Shown: positions 9,416 to 16,094, counted from the first letter of the stretch. The stretch: 64,000 nt of DNA from an uncultured delta proteobacterium (GCA_963749215.1 CAVVMA010000015.1:277915-341914), one strand, 5' to 3'. The notes: a model not told the origin generated them from the letters alone. Numbers and translations: made by a program.

Positions 9416-10726
9416 ATGCACGAAGCTGAATACAGATCGAAACTGATGACGCCGGCTGCCGGAGTAGAGCTTATTCCAGCGCGTGGGACGCTTTCGATGG
9501 GAATGGCGATCAGCGAGCCGCCGGCACTCCTACAGGCACTTGAGGACAGGGTGAAGCGCGGGGGGATCGAAGAGCTTCGAGTCTATTACTCGCATTCGGT
9601 CGCAGCCGCGGCGGCTACCATTCTCAAGTACGAGTACATGAACGTGATCAAGCCATATCCGTTTTTCCCCACCGTGATCGAGCGAATGCTGATCGAACGG
9701 GGCCGGCAGGACAATAGGCGGGTGGTCTTTTATATGCCGGGGAACTTCAGCGCCATGCCGCGCACCCTCGCCGCTATAGGAATCGACGCATTCGTGATGA
9801 TGGCCGCTCCGATGGATAAGGCCGGATTCTTCAGTTGCGGCACCAACGGAGACTATACGATCCCGACTGCGCGCGTTGCGAAAAAGCTGATCGTGGAGGT
9901 GAACCCGAAGATGCCCCGCGTTTTCGGAGACTCGTGCGTCCATATCTCCGAGGTTGACGCGATCGTTGAGAACGAAAGTCCGCTGTTTGCCGTTCCTCCG
10001 CGAGCGGCCACGGAACTCGACGAAAAGATCGGGAAAATTATCGTGGAGATGGTGCCCGATCGGGCCACGCTTCAGATCGGACTTGGCGGAGTACCAAATG
10101 CAGTCTGCAAAGTGCTGGCCAACCACAAGGACTTAGGCATTCATACCGAGTTGATGATGCCCTCGCTCGTCGCGCTCATTCGGTCAGGTGCAGTCACAAA
10201 CCGGTTCAAGAACCTCAACAGACACAAGAACGTATTCACTCTCGCCGCCGGCGACGAACCGTTCTACGAGTTCTTGAACGACAATTCGAGCATGGAGCTG
10301 TATGCGGTCGACTATGTCAACGACCCTTACGTGATCGGCCGGAACGATCGAGTGATATCGATCAGTGCTTTCCTGGAAGTCGGCCTTGACGGCGAGGTCA
10401 ACTCCGAAGCCATTGAGGGAAGGCAGTACAGCGCGCCGGGAGGCCAGTTGGATTTCGTTCGGGGGGCGCAGTTGTCCAAAGGTGGAAAGTCAATTCTGGC
10501 TGCATACTCCACCGCCGCGAAAGGATCCGTCTCCCGCATAGTCCCGAAAATTGAAGGGCCGACCACCGATCCACGGGCCGATACTCAATATATTATGACT
10601 GAGTACGGGATGGCTGACATGACCGGCAAATCCACAGCCGAGCGGGCCGAGGCGCTAATCGCCATTGCCCATCCCAGGTTCCGCGACCAGCTTGTCGAGG
10701 GCGCCAGGAAGCTGGGATATCTTTGA
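9416..10726 (+). CDS. Acetyl-CoA hydrolase / 4-hydroxybutyrate CoA-transferase family
   Basis: LQIGLGGVP, LGIHTE, GGQLDFVRGA, TEYG and IAHPRFRDQL motifs. Confidence 0.92.
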   Translation: MHEAEYRSKLMTPAAGVELIPARGTLSMGMAISEPPALLQALEDRVKRGGIEELRVYYSHSVAAAAATILKYEYMNVIKPYPFFPTVIERMLIERGRQDNRRVVFYMPGNFSAMPRTLAAIGIDAFVMMAAPMDKAGFFSCGTNGDYTIPTARVAKKLIVEVNPKMPRVFGDSCVHISEVDAIVENESPLFAVPPRAATELDEKIGKIIVEMVPDRATLQIGLGGVPNAVCKVLANHKDLGIHTELMMPSLVALIRSGAVTNRFKNLNRHKNVFTLAAGDEPFYEFLNDNSSMELYAVDYVNDPYVIGRNDRVISISAFLEVGLDGEVNSEAIEGRQYSAPGGQLDFVRGAQLSKGGKSILAAYSTAAKGSVSRIVPKIEGPTTDPRADTQYIMTEYGMADMTGKSTAERAEALIAIAHPRFRDQLVEGARKLGYL

Positions 10727-11928
10727 GCATGCGAACCGACGCTTGCGAACGGGAGTCCATTTTGAAGCCTATGGGTCAGTCTTTAACCTGCGATTGGGCG
10801 GGCAGCGCCCAGAACAATGAAAGCACTATTCATCAGCTTTCGCCGTACATTGGAAAACTTAAGTCATCCATGGCCGCGTCTCTCATTTCGCAGTTCACGA
10901 AGCGCGGCGAACTTGTTTACGACCCCTTCTCCGGATCCGGTACCGTCGCCTTGGAGGCCTGGTTCGCGGGCCGACATGTCGTAGCCAACGATCTCAATCC
11001 ATATGCCAGTCTGCTCACGCGAGCAAAGCTTTTTCCGTACCGCTCAGTTGAGGATGCCCTGCGCGACATCGAGCGGCTCAGCCTCGAAGCGGTGAAGTTG
11101 CAAGGCCGCTTCGATCTTCGGAAAGTCCCATCTTGGGTGCGGAGGTTCTTTCATCCCGATACTTTGCGTGAGACGCTTTCTTGGGCGAGTATTCTTGGGA
11201 AGCGACGCCGTTGGTTCTTGCTCGCATCGCTGCTCGGGATCTTGCACCATCAGCGTCCCGGTTTTTTGTCCTTTCCAAGTAGCCATACAGTTCCGTACTT
11301 GCGTGCGAAGAAGTTTCCTCGCGCTCGTTTCCCTGAAATGTATGAGTATCGCTCTCTGCGGGACCGTCTAGAGGCCAAAATAGAACGCGCATTTCGGCGG
11401 GTGCCGGAGTTGGATTTCAACATCAGACGAACCAGTTTCTGTAAGAGCGCAAACAACGTCGTTCTGTCGGCACCCGTCGATACCATAATTACAAGCCCTC
11501 CGTACATGCGACAATTGGACTACGGAAGAGACAATCGGTTGCGTCTCTGGTTCTTGGACGTCCAGGACTGGCGCTCTTTGGATGAGCTTGTTTCGCCCAG
11601 TGAAGATTCGTTTTTGAGCCTGATGCGTCGCTGCTTTACCCTCTGGAAAGCGGTCCTCAAACCTTCGCACTGCTGTGTCCTTATAATTGGGGATGCGTGC
11701 AGTCGCAATGACCGAGGAAACCTGCCTGACGTGGTCGCGCGCATCGCCACAGACGAGATTGGCGGATATTCGCGAGTGTGTGAGTATACGGATGCCATTC
11801 CGAATGAGAGGCGCGTTCGCCGTGGAATCGTTGGCAGCGTCTCCGAGACAATCGTAGTCCTTCGGAACACTGGCGTCTCAAGCTCATGGAGAGCATCCCG
11901 CGGGAGGACACATGCAACAGCTCTTTAA
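10723..11928 (+). CDS. Amino-DNA methyltransferase, probably N4-cytosine, alpha motif order
   Basis: N-terminal SAM-binding YDPFSGSGT and C-terminal catalytic ITSPPY. Confidence 0.85.
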   Translation: MSMRTDACERESILKPMGQSLTCDWAGSAQNNESTIHQLSPYIGKLKSSMAASLISQFTKRGELVYDPFSGSGTVALEAWFAGRHVVANDLNPYASLLTRAKLFPYRSVEDALRDIERLSLEAVKLQGRFDLRKVPSWVRRFFHPDTLRETLSWASILGKRRRWFLLASLLGILHHQRPGFLSFPSSHTVPYLRAKKFPRARFPEMYEYRSLRDRLEAKIERAFRRVPELDFNIRRTSFCKSANNVVLSAPVDTIITSPPYMRQLDYGRDNRLRLWFLDVQDWRSLDELVSPSEDSFLSLMRRCFTLWKAVLKPSHCCVLIIGDACSRNDRGNLPDVVARIATDEIGGYSRVCEYTDAIPNERRVRRGIVGSVSETIVVLRNTGVSSSWRASRGRTHATAL

Positions 11929-12997
11929 CACGCGAAACTACAGCATCCGTGACTTTGAGGAGTGGAACGAGCGAGGCGAACTTGTACTCGCTCCAAAATT
12001 CCAGCGCCGAGATTTCTGGAGCGACAAAGCACGTTCCTACCTTATCGACACCATCGTTCGGGGAAAGCCAATTCCCAAAATCTACATGCGCCAAGAGGTC
12101 AATCCCAAGACTCGCCGCGCGAGGCGCGAGATGGTGGATGGTCAGCAGAGGCTTCGCAGCGTGCTGGACTTTCTCAAGGATGGGTTCAAGATCAGCAAAG
12201 CTCATCACGAGGACTTCGGGGGTAAGTACTTCACCGGTTTGGACCAACACACGCAGCGCGACATTCTGAAGTACGAGTTTGTCGTCGATCTTCTTCAGGA
12301 TCTGCCCGACAATGAAGTCTACGACGTGTTTGCTCGAATAAACACTTACTCCGAGAAGCTGAAACCACAAGAATTGCGGAACGCGAAGTGGTTCGGTGAA
12401 TTCAAATCTGCGGTTTATCTTCTGTCTAAAGAATATGTGACGTTTTTTGCAACCAATGAAACCTTTTCGCCGAAATCAATTCTGCGCATGGCGGAGGCGG
12501 AGTTTATATCGCAGCTTCTCCTAGCTATCCATGAAGGGATCCGAGAGGGACAAAAGAGTGTTATCGACAATGCTTATAAGAAATACGATGACGACTTTCC
12601 ACGTCGTCGGCTTCATGAGAGGCGATTCCGCGAGACGATGGATACCATCGGAGGGATCGTCGGTGCAGACTTACCGCAACTGGAATTCCGTGCGACCAGA
12701 CTGTTCTACCCGCTATTCTGCGCAATGTTTCATGTGAAATTCGGTCTGCCAAGACTCCGCGCGCCAAGGGCTACCCTTAGGATCGCTGATTATCCGAAAC
12801 TGAAGAGAGTCTTAGAAAAGACCAGCGCACTGATTGATGAGATCAAAGCAGCCGAGGGTAGCACGAACGCTGTCGAGCTGTCGATCGAGGACCGAAGATT
12901 CTATGACGCCTACAATGAGCATTGGGTGCATGCAGACAAGAGAAGTGTCCTAACAGAGTATCTTTGCAAGAACTTCGTGAAGGCGCTGCGAGAATAA
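11912..12997 (+). CDS. DUF262 (ParB/Srx-like, GmrS-type) domain protein
   Basis: FQRR..W, YLIDTI..G.PIP, VDGQQRL and FARIN motifs; no C-terminal HNH (DUF1524). Confidence 0.9.
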   Translation: MQQLFNTRNYSIRDFEEWNERGELVLAPKFQRRDFWSDKARSYLIDTIVRGKPIPKIYMRQEVNPKTRRARREMVDGQQRLRSVLDFLKDGFKISKAHHEDFGGKYFTGLDQHTQRDILKYEFVVDLLQDLPDNEVYDVFARINTYSEKLKPQELRNAKWFGEFKSAVYLLSKEYVTFFATNETFSPKSILRMAEAEFISQLLLAIHEGIREGQKSVIDNAYKKYDDDFPRRRLHERRFRETMDTIGGIVGADLPQLEFRATRLFYPLFCAMFHVKFGLPRLRAPRATLRIADYPKLKRVLEKTSALIDEIKAAEGSTNAVELSIEDRRFYDAYNEHWVHADKRSVLTEYLCKNFVKALRE

Positions 12998-13001
12998 ACC
13001 G

Positions 13002-13661
13002 ATGGCGCAGCGCAGGCTACGTACCGTCTTGGAGGACTGCTTGCGGCGACTGGAAGAATCCAGGCGGCTCGCGGATGACGCCTATAGGTGGTCTTTGCCG
13101 GGAGCTTCAGGAATTGGCCCACGGATCAGTGTGAAAAGACGTGATTCTATGATGGAGCTGGCATTTCTGCGCACGTTCCTCGCTTGGGAATCTTTCCTGG
13201 AGGAGTCCTTCATTCTCTATCTCTCGGGGCAAAAGCCCCCTCGCGGTCGGCCCCCGGTTCGATACGCTTTCCCTCCTAACCACAAAGCGGCGATAGAATG
13301 GTTCGTTCCCGAATCGGGGCGCCCCAATTACGCACGATGGACCGTCGCGGGAGAGGTTACGACAAGAGCGGAGCGCGTTTTCCGAGCCGGGCGCCCATTC
13401 GCGGCTGTCCTCAGAGGAGGCCAAAACGTGCTGGACAAGTGTCGGACTATCAGGAATGCCATCGCGCATGAATCCGAGAGTTCTCGGACCAAGTTCGAGA
13501 CGCTGGCACGCGCCGAATTGGTCCCTTTACCTCTACCTCCGAGGTTGACCGTCGGAACCTTTCTTACTACGACTGTGCCAGCGTCCAGTCCACCTGTCTC
13601 ATTTCTGGACCACTACGTTGACAAAATCGACATTTTGGCGAAGCAGATCGTACGCTCTTGA
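13002..13661 (+). CDS. HEPN-domain protein (putative RNase)
   Basis: Helical protein with AWESFLEE and the Rx4H motif RNAIAH. Confidence 0.75.
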   Translation: MAQRRLRTVLEDCLRRLEESRRLADDAYRWSLPGASGIGPRISVKRRDSMMELAFLRTFLAWESFLEESFILYLSGQKPPRGRPPVRYAFPPNHKAAIEWFVPESGRPNYARWTVAGEVTTRAERVFRAGRPFAAVLRGGQNVLDKCRTIRNAIAHESESSRTKFETLARAELVPLPLPPRLTVGTFLTTTVPASSPPVSFLDHYVDKIDILAKQIVRS

Positions 13662-13712
13662 CTGCCCGGCGTAGGCGGCGTGAGAACTCACGAATGAAAA
13701 AAAGGCCAAAGC

Positions 13713-13859
13713 ATGCCGCGAAAGCCGCCCGATGCGGCGCCGGACGTCCTGAAAATCGAGGGTAATTGGAAAGAAGCCGTTACCAAGGCGCTTCAAGTGA
13801 GGAAGCCGCCCGGCGGCTGGCCGAAGCCGGAACCTCACCGACCGAAGGAATCAGCTTAG
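13713..13859 (+). CDS. Short basic hypothetical peptide (48 aa)
   Basis: Below the ORF-track cutoff: MPRKPPDAAPDVLKIEGNWKEAVTKALQVRKPPGGWPKPEPHRPKESA. Confidence 0.4.
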   Translation: MPRKPPDAAPDVLKIEGNWKEAVTKALQVRKPPGGWPKPEPHRPKESA

Positions 13860-13957
13860 CCTATGCGAGCGAAGTGAGCGCCGATGCGAGAAATGAAGCG
13901 GATTCAGGCACATGCTCCCGGATCGAATTGAGAGCGTCTCGGCCTTGGAGGCATGAA

Positions 13958-14389
13958 ATGCAGGTCACGATGATTGGATTCATCAGACGAGGAGTTTGTG
14001 CATCGATTGTCGTACTGATGCTCTCCGGGTTCGGCGCGATGAACGTCTGGGCTGGAACTACCGGCAAGCAGGATTTCGAGCAGAACTGCGCTTCCTGCCA
14101 TGGCAAGGACGGCAAGGGTCATGGCGAGGCGCTATATGTCATTCCCGGGATCAAGCCGCCCGATTTGACAGAATTGAGCAGGAACCAGGGCGGCGTGTTC
14201 CCAGCCGATCGAGTGTACCAATCCATCGACGGTAGGTCGGGCATTCCCTCACATACGCGCTTCGACATGCCGTTCTGGGGAACGAGTCTTCAGCAGGAAG
14301 GAAAAGAGTTCAGCCCGGAGAGCGAAGCGAAAGTCAAAGAGCGCATCTCAAATGTCGTGAGTTACATCAGGAGCATCCAGGAAAAGTAG
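13958..14389 (+). CDS. Monoheme c-type cytochrome
   Basis: Signal peptide, CASCH heme motif, MPFWG axial Met; GGAGG RBS. Confidence 0.9.
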   Translation: MQVTMIGFIRRGVCASIVVLMLSGFGAMNVWAGTTGKQDFEQNCASCHGKDGKGHGEALYVIPGIKPPDLTELSRNQGGVFPADRVYQSIDGRSGIPSHTRFDMPFWGTSLQQEGKEFSPESEAKVKERISNVVSYIRSIQEK

Positions 14390-14426
14390 ACGGCAGCGAA
14401 GTGCCCGATTTTGTCCCGCTGCCGGT

Positions 14427-16094
14427 ATGGAAATTCTGGAGAAAACGCGGATGTCGCCCGAGATCGAATCAGCGCATACCAACTTGCCGCCGCTGATCGA
14501 GGCGATGACCCATCCGGCCTTCTACCCCGATCCGGCGAATACAGTTGAATTGAGGCAGACTCATATCTCGTATGTATTTCTGGCCGGCGACTATGCCTAC
14601 AAGGTCAAGAAACCTGTCCGGTTTCCGTTCCTCGACTGTGCGAGGCTCGCTGAGCGCTACCGGCTCTGCGTCGAGGAAGTACGGCTGAATCGGCGCCTCT
14701 CGCCCGAAATCTATCTCGGTGTCTTCTCGATTCTCGAGCAGCGCGGTCGATTCGTGCTCGGGGACGATGCTCGCGCCTTCGATATGCGAGCCTGCGAGTA
14801 CGCGGTCAAGATGCGGCGGTTGCCCGAGGACCGGATGCTCGATCGGCTGGTTGGTGCAAAAGCGGTTGGCAAAGACACGATCGGAATGCTCGCGAGGCGA
14901 CTCGCCGCCTTCCATCGCGATTGCTCGGCTGTCCGGAGCTGGACCTACGGTTCGGCCGCGGCGGTCTGGCGCACTGTGATCCGCGATCTGAAGGAAGACG
15001 AACAGTTTGCCGGCTACACCATAAGCCGGCCACAACTGCGCGCTCTCGAAGAACATTGCCGCGCCTTCACGATGGCGCATTGGGAGCTGCTCAACGATCG
15101 GGCGCGCTACAAGCGCGTGCGTGAGTGTCACGGCGATCTGCGATGCGATTCGGTATGCGTGACGGACGGCCTGGTGATTTTCGATTGTCTCGAATTCAGT
15201 GAACGGCTGCGCTATTGCGATGTCGCCTCCGAGGTCGCGTTCTGCGCGATGGATCTCGACCGGCTCGGCGCGCGCGGACTCGCCGACGAGCTGGTAATGG
15301 CCTATGCCGAAGCGTCGAACGACGAGGCCGCAGCGCTGCTCGTCCCGTTCTACAAGTGCTTCCGCGCCACCGTCCGCGGCAAAGTCGAAAGCCTGCGCAG
15401 CCTCGACCGGAAGGTCCCGGCCGCGCAGCGCGAGCGCGCGATGGAAAACGCGCGCGCCTGCTTCGCACTCGCTCTCCGCTATGCGCAGGCTGCGACGCCC
15501 GCGCTGCTTGTAACGTGCGGTCTCTCGGGCGCCGGCAAGTCCACCGTTGCGCGCCTGCTTCAACTCCGCACCGGCTTCGAGATAGTCAATTCGGATCGGG
15601 TCCGAAAGCGTCTGGCGGGAGTCCACGAGACCGTGCATGTTCCCGAGGGCTATAGGGGTGGAATCTATGCGAACGACTTTACGAAGATGACCTATAAATC
15701 CCTACTGGCCGAGGCCGATGCCCGGTTGGCGGAGGGTTGCGGCGTGATCGTCGATGCGACCTTCAGAGCCTCGGCAGACCGGCGCCGTCTGCTCGATACG
15801 GCTGCCCGTCACTGCACGCCCGCGTTGTTCTTTGAATGTAAGGCGCCCACGGATGAAGTGCTTCGGCGCCTGCGCGAGCGCGAGCAAAAGTCCGGCGAAG
15901 TTTCCGACGCCACGCCGGAAATCTATCTGCGTCAGGCGGGCGAATTCGAGCCAATCACAGAGCTCTCCGAGCGCTCGCATCTGACGGTCGATACCACCGA
16001 GGATCACGCCGCGATCGGGAGCAGGCTCGAAGAAGCCGTGCTCCGATTGCTGCCTCGCGGCGCCGTTGGGTTCGAGCAGGTGGGTCCGGACTGA
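14427..16094 (+). CDS. APH-like phosphotransferase fused to a P-loop kinase (Rv2004c-like AAA family)
   Basis: QTHIS, ECHGDL, FDCLEF, then GLSGAGKS and VIVDATF. Confidence 0.9.
   Translation: MEILEKTRMSPEIESAHTNLPPLIEAMTHPAFYPDPANTVELRQTHISYVFLAGDYAYKVKKPVRFPFLDCARLAERYRLCVEEVRLNRRLSPEIYLGVFSILEQRGRFVLGDDARAFDMRACEYAVKMRRLPEDRMLDRLVGAKAVGKDTIGMLARRLAAFHRDCSAVRSWTYGSAAAVWRTVIRDLKEDEQFAGYTISRPQLRALEEHCRAFTMAHWELLNDRARYKRVRECHGDLRCDSVCVTDGLVIFDCLEFSERLRYCDVASEVAFCAMDLDRLGARGLADELVMAYAEASNDEAAALLVPFYKCFRATVRGKVESLRSLDRKVPAAQRERAMENARACFALALRYAQAATPALLVTCGLSGAGKSTVARLLQLRTGFEIVNSDRVRKRLAGVHETVHVPEGYRGGIYANDFTKMTYKSLLAEADARLAEGCGVIVDATFRASADRRRLLDTAARHCTPALFFECKAPTDEVLRRLREREQKSGEVSDATPEIYLRQAGEFEPITELSERSHLTVDTTEDHAAIGSRLEEAVLRLLPRGAVGFEQVGPD

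Follow-up and report, generated by a model that had tools for sequence, protein, structure and literature searches.

The 64,000 nucleotides (nt) of uncultured delta proteobacterium DNA analysed here (GCA_963749215.1 CAVVMA010000015.1:277915-341914; the whole stretch is called the window throughout) host a cassette of three genes, which encode in this order a DNA methylase, a DUF262 protein and a HEPN-like protein, and sit between genes coding for a CoA-transferase and a cytochrome c. We incline, with some reserve, to see in the cassette a mobile anti-phage module of three genes, two of which form a conserved core, and in which a sensor guarded by the methylase triggers a ribonuclease (RNase). 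Gene order, domain identities, the intact catalytic motifs and the conservation of the DUF262-HEPN pair are established, and so is the fact that one clade of relatives has either retained the methylase or replaced it.

All three open reading frames (ORFs) are on the same strand (Table 1), and their tight coupling, noted in the preliminary description, is confirmed by their coordinates: the first two overlap by 17 nt (11912-11928), and 4 nt (12998-13001) separate the second from the third. The first ORF extends, as previously described, from 10723 to 11928 in its longest form, which begins with TTG. Homologues align only from residues 18-24 of this product, and for this reason the start has been moved to the ATG at 10771 (385 amino acids, aa), which is more likely to be the one in use. 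The cassette had also been described as richer in AT than its flanks. It is so to a moderate extent: its G+C content (0.537 vs 0.608 for the whole window) is the lowest in the window, one in 612 sliding windows of equal length being as low, and G+C at third codon positions is 0.59-0.61 in the cassette genes vs 0.70-0.79 in neighbouring genes. Promoter- and terminator-like sites in the cassette region are not above those in shuffled controls, and a scan of positions 10300-14400 against Rfam gave zero matches. The coordinates of the motifs reported below have been verified by translating the window DNA.

Table 1. Genes of the cassette and inserted segment, with their positions in the window
Feature	Position	Strand	Basis
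DNA methyltransferase (N6-adenine/N4-cytosine type)	10771..11928	+	Pfam, PADLOC, motifs
DUF262 (ParB/Srx-fold NTPase-type) protein, helical C-terminal domain, no HNH/DUF1524	11912..12997	+	Pfam, PADLOC, AF2 (AlphaFold2)
HEPN-like protein, 219 aa, all helical; predicted RNase effector	13002..13661	+	Rx4H, fold, profile comparison
Segment absent from the G001 site: cassette and 287 nt downstream	10727..13948	.	blastn/tblastn of window flanks vs G001 loci

The product of the first gene matches the Pfam family N6_N4_Mtase (E 4.7e-13) and, in PADLOC, type II methylase models (best MTase_II, E 3.3e-21). The S-adenosylmethionine (SAM)-binding motif DPFSGSG (10921-10941) is N-terminal and the catalytic SPPY (11494-11505), from which a methylase had been recognized at the start, is C-terminal; this order is permuted relative to the beta-class enzyme PDB 2zie, as seen by alignment. 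DPFxGxG and SPPY are invariant across 13 methylase homologues. A match to Pfam MethyltransfD12 (27.6 bits) involves the SAM-binding part only (residues 47-119).

In the second protein, Pfam detects GmrSD_N/DUF262 alone (E 1.2e-20, residues 25-161), and no match to GmrSD_C/HNH (DUF1524) was found even at E 10, which agrees with the earlier account of a DUF262 protein featuring DGQQR and lacking HNH. Translation locates the motifs QRRDFW at 12002-12019, DGQQR at 12137-12151 and FARIN at 12329-12343; the corresponding DGQQR, QRxxxW and FxxxN are invariant in 26 DUF262 partners. The best match in PADLOC is NsnA (E 5.8e-38, residues 6-253), above PD-T4-2_A (PDLC04027; E 4.4e-18, residues 14-203). 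The AF2 model, with a predicted local distance difference test score (pLDDT) of 89.7, features a ParB/Srx-type N-terminal domain and an all-helical C-terminal half, and Foldseek places BrxU (E 1.8e-4), ParB/Noc CTPases, SspE and sulfiredoxin at the top of its matches. Zero matches to PDB sequences were found at E 0.1. The top 120 relatives of the protein are all 337-373 aa long.

The product of the third gene has zero matches in Pfam (to E 10), PADLOC (E 0.1) and NCBIfam. It belongs, nevertheless, to a large family, for which 178 word-sharing relatives and 1,934 cluster representatives (E <= 0.001; ~1,900 clusters at 50% identity) have been identified. The motif LAWESFLEE is found at 13179-13205, and the Rx4H motif, here RNAIAH, at 13452-13469. 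The arginine and the histidine of the latter (R151 and H156) do not vary among 29 close homologues or among 25 diverse ones, at identities down to 23%, and the same is true of the WE..E motif. The AF2 model (pLDDT 87.1) is all helical. When compared with 48,161 chains by VIA-align, seven of the top ten rows were HEPN proteins, as judged from their titles or the literature, at Z 8.7-9.9, values under 10 being in the range which helical bundles reach by chance; two further rows among the top ten are presumably HEPN as well. Twelve of the 25 diverse family members match PF18735 (RiboL-PSP HEPN), all below threshold (best 21.1 bits vs a cut-off of 28.4); sub-threshold matches to Swt1-HEPN and PF18737 involve four and one of them, respectively, and none of the 25 reaches the curated cut-offs of PF18735 or PF18737. 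Profile-profile comparison by hhalign of the family with six genuine MAE_28990/RiboL-PSP HEPN proteins gave a probability of 89.8% (E 1.8e-6) over 79 N-terminal columns, which include the WE..E motif; the Rx4H regions of the two groups correspond by eye only. On the basis of the fold search, the sub-threshold Pfam matches and the profile comparison, the protein is concluded to be a divergent HEPN, plausibly a distant relative of the MAE_28990/RiboL-PSP group, and the assignment to HEPN made from RNAIAH in the preliminary description is upheld.

Other searches with this family were less informative. Matches of its profile to PDB sequences are at chance level (E >= 0.67), and none was found in PADLOC at E <= 0.001, CARF_HEPN, PDC-S05 and QatD being weakly matched at E 0.013-0.035. 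No fused forms of the HEPN-like protein were found among longer proteins, which is weak evidence. One 427-aa representative, P0245, consists of the C-terminal part of a DUF262 partner, 37% identical to residues 143-309 of the window DUF262 protein, and of a HEPN-like domain (residues 212-425); this single case reflects either a natural fusion or an artefact of gene calling. Prediction of a complex between the DUF262 and HEPN-like proteins gave no verdict (score 0.00), which speaks neither for nor against binding.

Loci related to the cassette have been searched by an alignment-based pattern scan, keeping one genome per species, and 33 were found. (One further candidate, L001, detected by single-protein search, was a spurious match of 23 residues; none of the three proteins matched there.) The 33 loci span at least nine phyla: Acidobacteriota, Pseudomonadota, Chloroflexota, Bacillota, Planctomycetota, Nitrospirota, Gemmatimonadota, and Verrucomicrobiota-type and KSB1 bins. 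A DUF262 homologue is located directly upstream of the HEPN-like gene in all 33, and the DUF262-HEPN pair is the conserved core. The methylase varies. A member of the window's methylase family is found upstream in 14 loci, and an unrelated N6_N4 methylase directly upstream in four (L006, L015, L017, L018); in L024 a C5+N6 fusion methylase is two genes upstream; the other 14 loci have zero DNA methylase in the scanned flanks (~3.8 kb upstream and 3 kb downstream), two of these, L022 and L034, being cut by contig ends. Methylases outside the window's family were called by a Pfam scan of 142 ORFs from the 19 loci devoid of that family. Altogether, a DNA methylase is directly upstream of the pair in 18 of the 33 loci, and is of at least four unrelated types.

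The phylogeny of the DUF262 proteins gives order to this variation. The tree was obtained by a quick IQ-TREE search, with support from the Shimodaira-Hasegawa-like approximate likelihood ratio test (SH-aLRT) only, and comprises 29 window-type and five outgroup rows; L003, L004, L009 and L013, in which genes are interrupted, and L034, a fragment, were left out. Window-type DUF262 partners fall into a single clade (99% support). Within it, 14 rows make up an inner clade (97% support) that features a methylase directly upstream in 14/14 cases, 11 from the window's family and three from other families, and the basal clades lack methylases, except for L024. Given this distribution, the DUF262-HEPN pair is the ancestral unit, which a methylase joined once, to be later replaced and not lost. 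Replacement instead of loss suggests that the methylase is needed in the window's clade. The three genes had been regarded at first as one unit, which is not supported for the family at large, in which the pair is constant and the methylase is not.

In four loci (L003, L004, L009, L013) the DUF262 gene is broken and the HEPN gene is intact. In L009 the interruption is a frameshift. L003 and L004 represent one event, the same IS4-type insertion sequence (IS) being found in both the methylase and the DUF262 genes; this is the only case of a broken methylase gene, and the DUF262 gene is broken as well. An intact HEPN gene next to a broken DUF262 gene fits a sensor or activator role of the DUF262 protein better than an antitoxin role. 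The two loci come from one Bryobacterales bin, a single contig of which carries both copies, 99.97% identical over 10.9 kb; the positions concerned are 1604-2892 and 3965-5289 in L003, and likewise in L004. The inserted elements are 1.3 kb long, their copies are 99.9% identical, and they encode a DUF4372 + DDE_Tnp_1 transposase.

The window cassette itself is absent from the same site in a genome of the same genus, G001, where the CoA-transferase and cytochrome c orthologues (88-92% and 83% aa identity, respectively) are 338 nt apart, and the Usp/CBS and kinase genes that the window has there come next. Positions 10305-10726 and 13949-14397 of the window match G001 at ~90% nucleotide identity; as homology breaks off at 10726 and restarts at 13949, the DNA in between (G+C 0.543) is extra in the window. 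The insertion between the two genes proposed in the preliminary description is thereby supported by an empty site. No direct or inverted repeats of note flank the junctions, and related loci show no conservation of the 287 nt at the end of the insert. The HEPN-like gene was detected in three of 41 genomes searched, that of the window included, where it is single-copy, and in none of four same-genus genomes, which are 75-90% complete. The cassette has been acquired horizontally. In two other genomes of the genus, G003 and G004, synteny is lost after the CoA-transferase gene and housekeeping genes are found at that position, which argues that the insertion site is not a defence hotspot.

Some features of the surrounding genes are worth recording. 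The CoA-transferase orthologue beside the insertion site is in two overlapping pieces in G001 (L053/L058) and G003 (L054/L057), from either a frameshift or an assembly error. The cytochrome c ORF is listed from a TTG at 13766, and is similar to the G001 orthologue only from residue 62; as its first 61 codons fall within the inserted segment (13766-13948), the true start is probably near 13949-13960. Downstream of the cassette, positions 14427-16094 encode a protein of 555 aa, whose C-terminal domain is an AAA_33/zeta-toxin-like kinase. The gene is kept in G001, at 59-64% identity, and for this reason it is assigned to the core neighbourhood and not to the cassette.

In several loci, genes for GmrSD, ArdC, NERD, PIN, MNT-HEPN, an integrase or an IS adjoin relatives of the cassette. 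L006 (1692-7704), on an Acidobacteriota chromosome, is a small defence or mobile island, in which a full-length GmrSD gene (DUF262+DUF1524), a helix-turn-helix (HTH) gene, the unrelated N6_N4 methylase, the pair and an ArdC-like anti-restriction gene follow one another. In a Frateuria bin, the next ORF downstream of the HEPN-like gene (L032:6562-7269) itself weakly matches HEPN_RiboL-PSP (E 7.1e-4), and is followed by an IS200-type transposase. In a Mesorhizobium bin (L030:1080-6525) a window-type pair is found directly after a carB-like gene, and a genuine PD-T4-2-type pair lies exactly between carA and carB in L039 (398-2004); the two cases hint that the vicinity of carbamoyl-phosphate synthase genes may be a recurrent insertion site.

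From the above we infer DNA sensing, a role for methylation, an RNase activity with cleavage of RNA, and a defence phenotype, which could be combined as follows. The DUF262/ParB-fold protein would sense DNA in an NTP-dependent manner, its helical C-terminal domain being of DNA-binding type. The methylase, a guard presumably added in the window's subclade, would mark the host's own DNA, and the sensor would be triggered only by incoming DNA lacking the methyl mark. Once triggered, it would switch on the HEPN RNase, which would cut cellular or phage RNA and bring the infection to an end, the likely means being growth arrest or abortive infection. A functional link between methylase and pair is favoured because the methylase is retained in one clade, is replaced there by unrelated methylases, and its gene overlaps the next one. 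The same replacements disfavour a strict, site-matched recognition of the type found in classical restriction-modification (RM) systems.

Several observations weigh against this scheme. The pair lacks a nearby methylase in 14/33 loci, from which it follows that it can work alone and that its trigger need not be missing methylation. The L006 DUF262 protein is ~74% identical to that of the window, despite the unrelated methylase next to it, whose target sites are probably different, and swaps of this kind are hard to reconcile with a site-specific reading of the methyl mark. Known DUF262 sensors (GmrSD, BrxU, SspE and probably Dazbog) are described as responding to modified, and not to unmodified, DNA. 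The HEPN-like model gave zero Foldseek matches at E <= 0.001, HEPN toxins being found among the weak rows, and its VIA-align scores do not exceed the range of chance mentioned above. The PADLOC models PD-T4-2_B and PD-Lambda-5_A/B fail at the cassette, the flanking genes are housekeeping genes and not a defence island, and the broken-gene loci come from metagenome bins, L003 and L004 counting as one event.

A more specific form of the proposal, advanced tentatively, is that in the window's clade the cassette is an RM system devoid of restriction enzyme, in which the DUF262 protein would read methylation generically and unmethylated incoming DNA would lead to RNase activation, and not to DNA cutting. 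Generic reading would explain why unrelated methylases could be swapped in.

The alternative which survives best, a doubtful one in our judgement, is that the DUF262-HEPN pair is an autonomous defence system similar to PD-T4-2, sensing a phage cue such as modified DNA, and that the methylase is an orphan or a companion without control role. The methylase-free loci would be accounted for, two genes are enough for PD-T4-2, which protects against T4, and characterised DUF262 proteins sense modified DNA; moreover, two of five MAE_28990-type pairs are found beside a complete XhoI-type RM system, which suggests simple co-location with modification genes. Against it stand the 17-nt overlap of the methylase and DUF262 genes and the presence of a methylase in all 14 rows of one clade, where the original family, when missing, is replaced by unrelated methylases at the same position; and in the sole case of a broken methylase the DUF262 gene is broken too.

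It is rather unlikely that the cassette is a selfish addiction module, acting in the manner of type II RM or toxin-antitoxin systems, with the mark diluted after loss of the genes, the leftover DUF262 and HEPN proteins killing the cell, and defence secondary or absent. The constant retention of the methylase within the clade fits such a module, as do the compactness of the mobile unit, set amid housekeeping genes with no other defence genes nearby, and the toxin role of HEPN in HEPN-MNT pairs. Methylase-free pairs are common, however, HEPN alone is apparently tolerated where it is intact beside a broken DUF262 gene, and analogous systems give measurable phage protection. That the cassette plays no part in immunity or conflict, the methylase and the ParB-like protein serving to handle DNA or for epigenetic regulation, with a non-catalytic helical partner as the third product, is very improbable: the third protein matches no curated family and its structural matches are those that helical bundles may give by chance, but the Rx4H arginine and histidine are invariant down to 23% identity, homology to HEPN families is detected at the profile level, the patchy distribution across phyla points to horizontal transfer, and the sensor closely resembles NsnA and PD-T4-2_A, both of which belong to defence systems.

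The methylase-guarded module that we favour bears on the question of how DUF262 sensors devoid of nuclease (PD-T4-2, Menshen, Dazbog) recognise infection and signal to their effectors. The family is a natural experiment, the same pair being found with no methylase, with one methylase family, or with at least three other methylase types, and this makes the gating of the sensor by methylation directly testable; a tractable test of such gating is the main value of these cassettes. Should the RM scheme without restriction enzyme be correct, three small genes would link methylation-based discrimination between self and non-self to abortive infection. Detection tools based on Pfam and PADLOC probably miss these cassettes, because the HEPN family, for all its 1,934 representatives, has no model above threshold in either.

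Operons associating HEPN, ParB and methylase genes (MAE_28990-like) had been predicted by Anantharaman et al. 2013 (Biol Direct); their link with the cassette, made in the preliminary description, is borne out by that listing and by the hhalign match of the HEPN family. The accompanying statement that no experimental characterisation was known has to be withdrawn. As described by Vassallo et al. 2022 (Nat Microbiol), PD-T4-2 ('DUF262, HEPN'; E. coli ECOR65) is a validated anti-phage system which protects against T4, deletion in the native strain being part of the validation, and PD-lambda-5 ('ParB/HEPN, methyltransferase'; E. coli ECOR7) provides broad phage protection and is interpreted by the authors as a compact RM+Abi (abortive infection) system. 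A literature search retrieved no mechanistic study of either system and none of the methylase-DUF262-HEPN trio, supplements of bioRxiv preprints being outside its coverage. That the cassette might coincide with an already named system has been checked, and it falls outside each of them. Classical type II RM was also considered and set aside, as the inserted segment has three genes only, none with a nuclease-family match.

The window cassette and PD-T4-2 share the order of the genes, a DUF262 protein of ~360 aa being followed on the same strand by a small Rx4H HEPN protein, and the match of the window protein to PD-T4-2_A. A genuine PD-T4-2-type pair was found in one of 401 genomes (L039), and its DUF262 protein is 27% identical to that of the window over 168 aa. 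In contrast, the HEPN proteins belong to different families (219 aa in the window, ~167 aa in PD-T4-2). The PD-T4-2_B model (PDLC04028) does not match the window protein at E 0.1, nor 25 family members or the whole genome at E 1, and hhalign aligns the window HEPN family to a genuine PD-T4-2_B-type protein with a probability of 1.1%, over only 22 columns around Rx4H. PD-T4-2 itself lacks a methylase, and window-type DUF262 partners form a separate clade (99% support).

The same three functions are found in PD-lambda-5, where ParB-fold and HEPN-like domains accompany a DNA methylase and no restriction endonuclease is recognisable; its expression required an mrr/mcr-deficient host. The ParB (N-terminal) and HEPN-like (C-terminal) parts of PD-lambda-5 are fused in one protein, whereas the window has two genes; the ParB part is of ParBc type, not DUF262, and the methylase is of the D12 class. 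The PADLOC models PD-Lambda-5_A (PDLC04017, E 1) and, for PD-Lambda-5_B, PDLC04018 and PDLC04019 gave no match at the window's locus. Elsewhere in the same genome (G000 contig C9, ~11.9-15.2 kb; L064, L065), parA, parB, an HTH gene and a D12 (Dam-type) methylase gene are clustered; the methylase matches PD-Lambda-5_B at E 1.4e-9, and the whole resembles an ordinary partition locus with a methylase.

Operons of the MAE_28990/RiboL-PSP type share with the cassette the association of a ParB-type gene with a DNA methylase and the profile homology of the HEPN proteins. The window family fails the thresholds of PF18735 and PF18737. The latter is passed by six proteins (213-350 aa) in the 401 genomes, and five of the six have a DUF262 gene directly upstream. 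In two of these five loci an XhoI-type endonuclease and a methylase follow downstream, so that a complete type II RM system adjoins the sensor-HEPN pair; the four-gene rows, DUF262, MAE_28990/RiboL-PSP HEPN, R.XhoI-type endonuclease and N6_N4 methylase, are at L047:5266-7881 + L066:35-904 and L048:5433-8130 + L067:69-1043. Where present, the methylase of the MAE-type loci examined is part of a downstream XhoI-type RM pair, whereas in the window it is alone and upstream.

The best PADLOC match of the window DUF262 protein is to NsnA of Menshen (NsnABC; Millman et al. 2022; Li et al. 2025, NAR), and NsnA shares with it the architecture of a ParB-DUF262 domain followed by a helical C-terminal domain. 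According to Li et al. 2025 (NAR), Menshen sometimes adjoins lone methylases, and the authors ask whether ParB-DUF262 might target non-modified genomes. The cassette differs in lacking the NsnB ABC ATPase (DUF3696) and NsnC; elsewhere in the window's genome, on other contigs, the NsnB model is matched only weakly (E 2e-4 and 7.4e-4), and it matches 14/14 control genomes as well. NsnC consists of an inactive PIN domain and a nuclease, whereas the window effector is a predicted HEPN. With GmrSD, BrxU and SspE the cassette has in common the DUF262 NTPase module with DGQQR, which in those systems is described as sensing DNA modification, and BrxU is the best structural match; it differs in lacking a DUF1524/HNH DNase domain, the effector being a separate, predicted RNase. 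The architecture is not new, having been predicted in 2013 and validated in close analogues in 2022; the cassette shares it with the named systems, while failing the tests by which membership of each is recognised.

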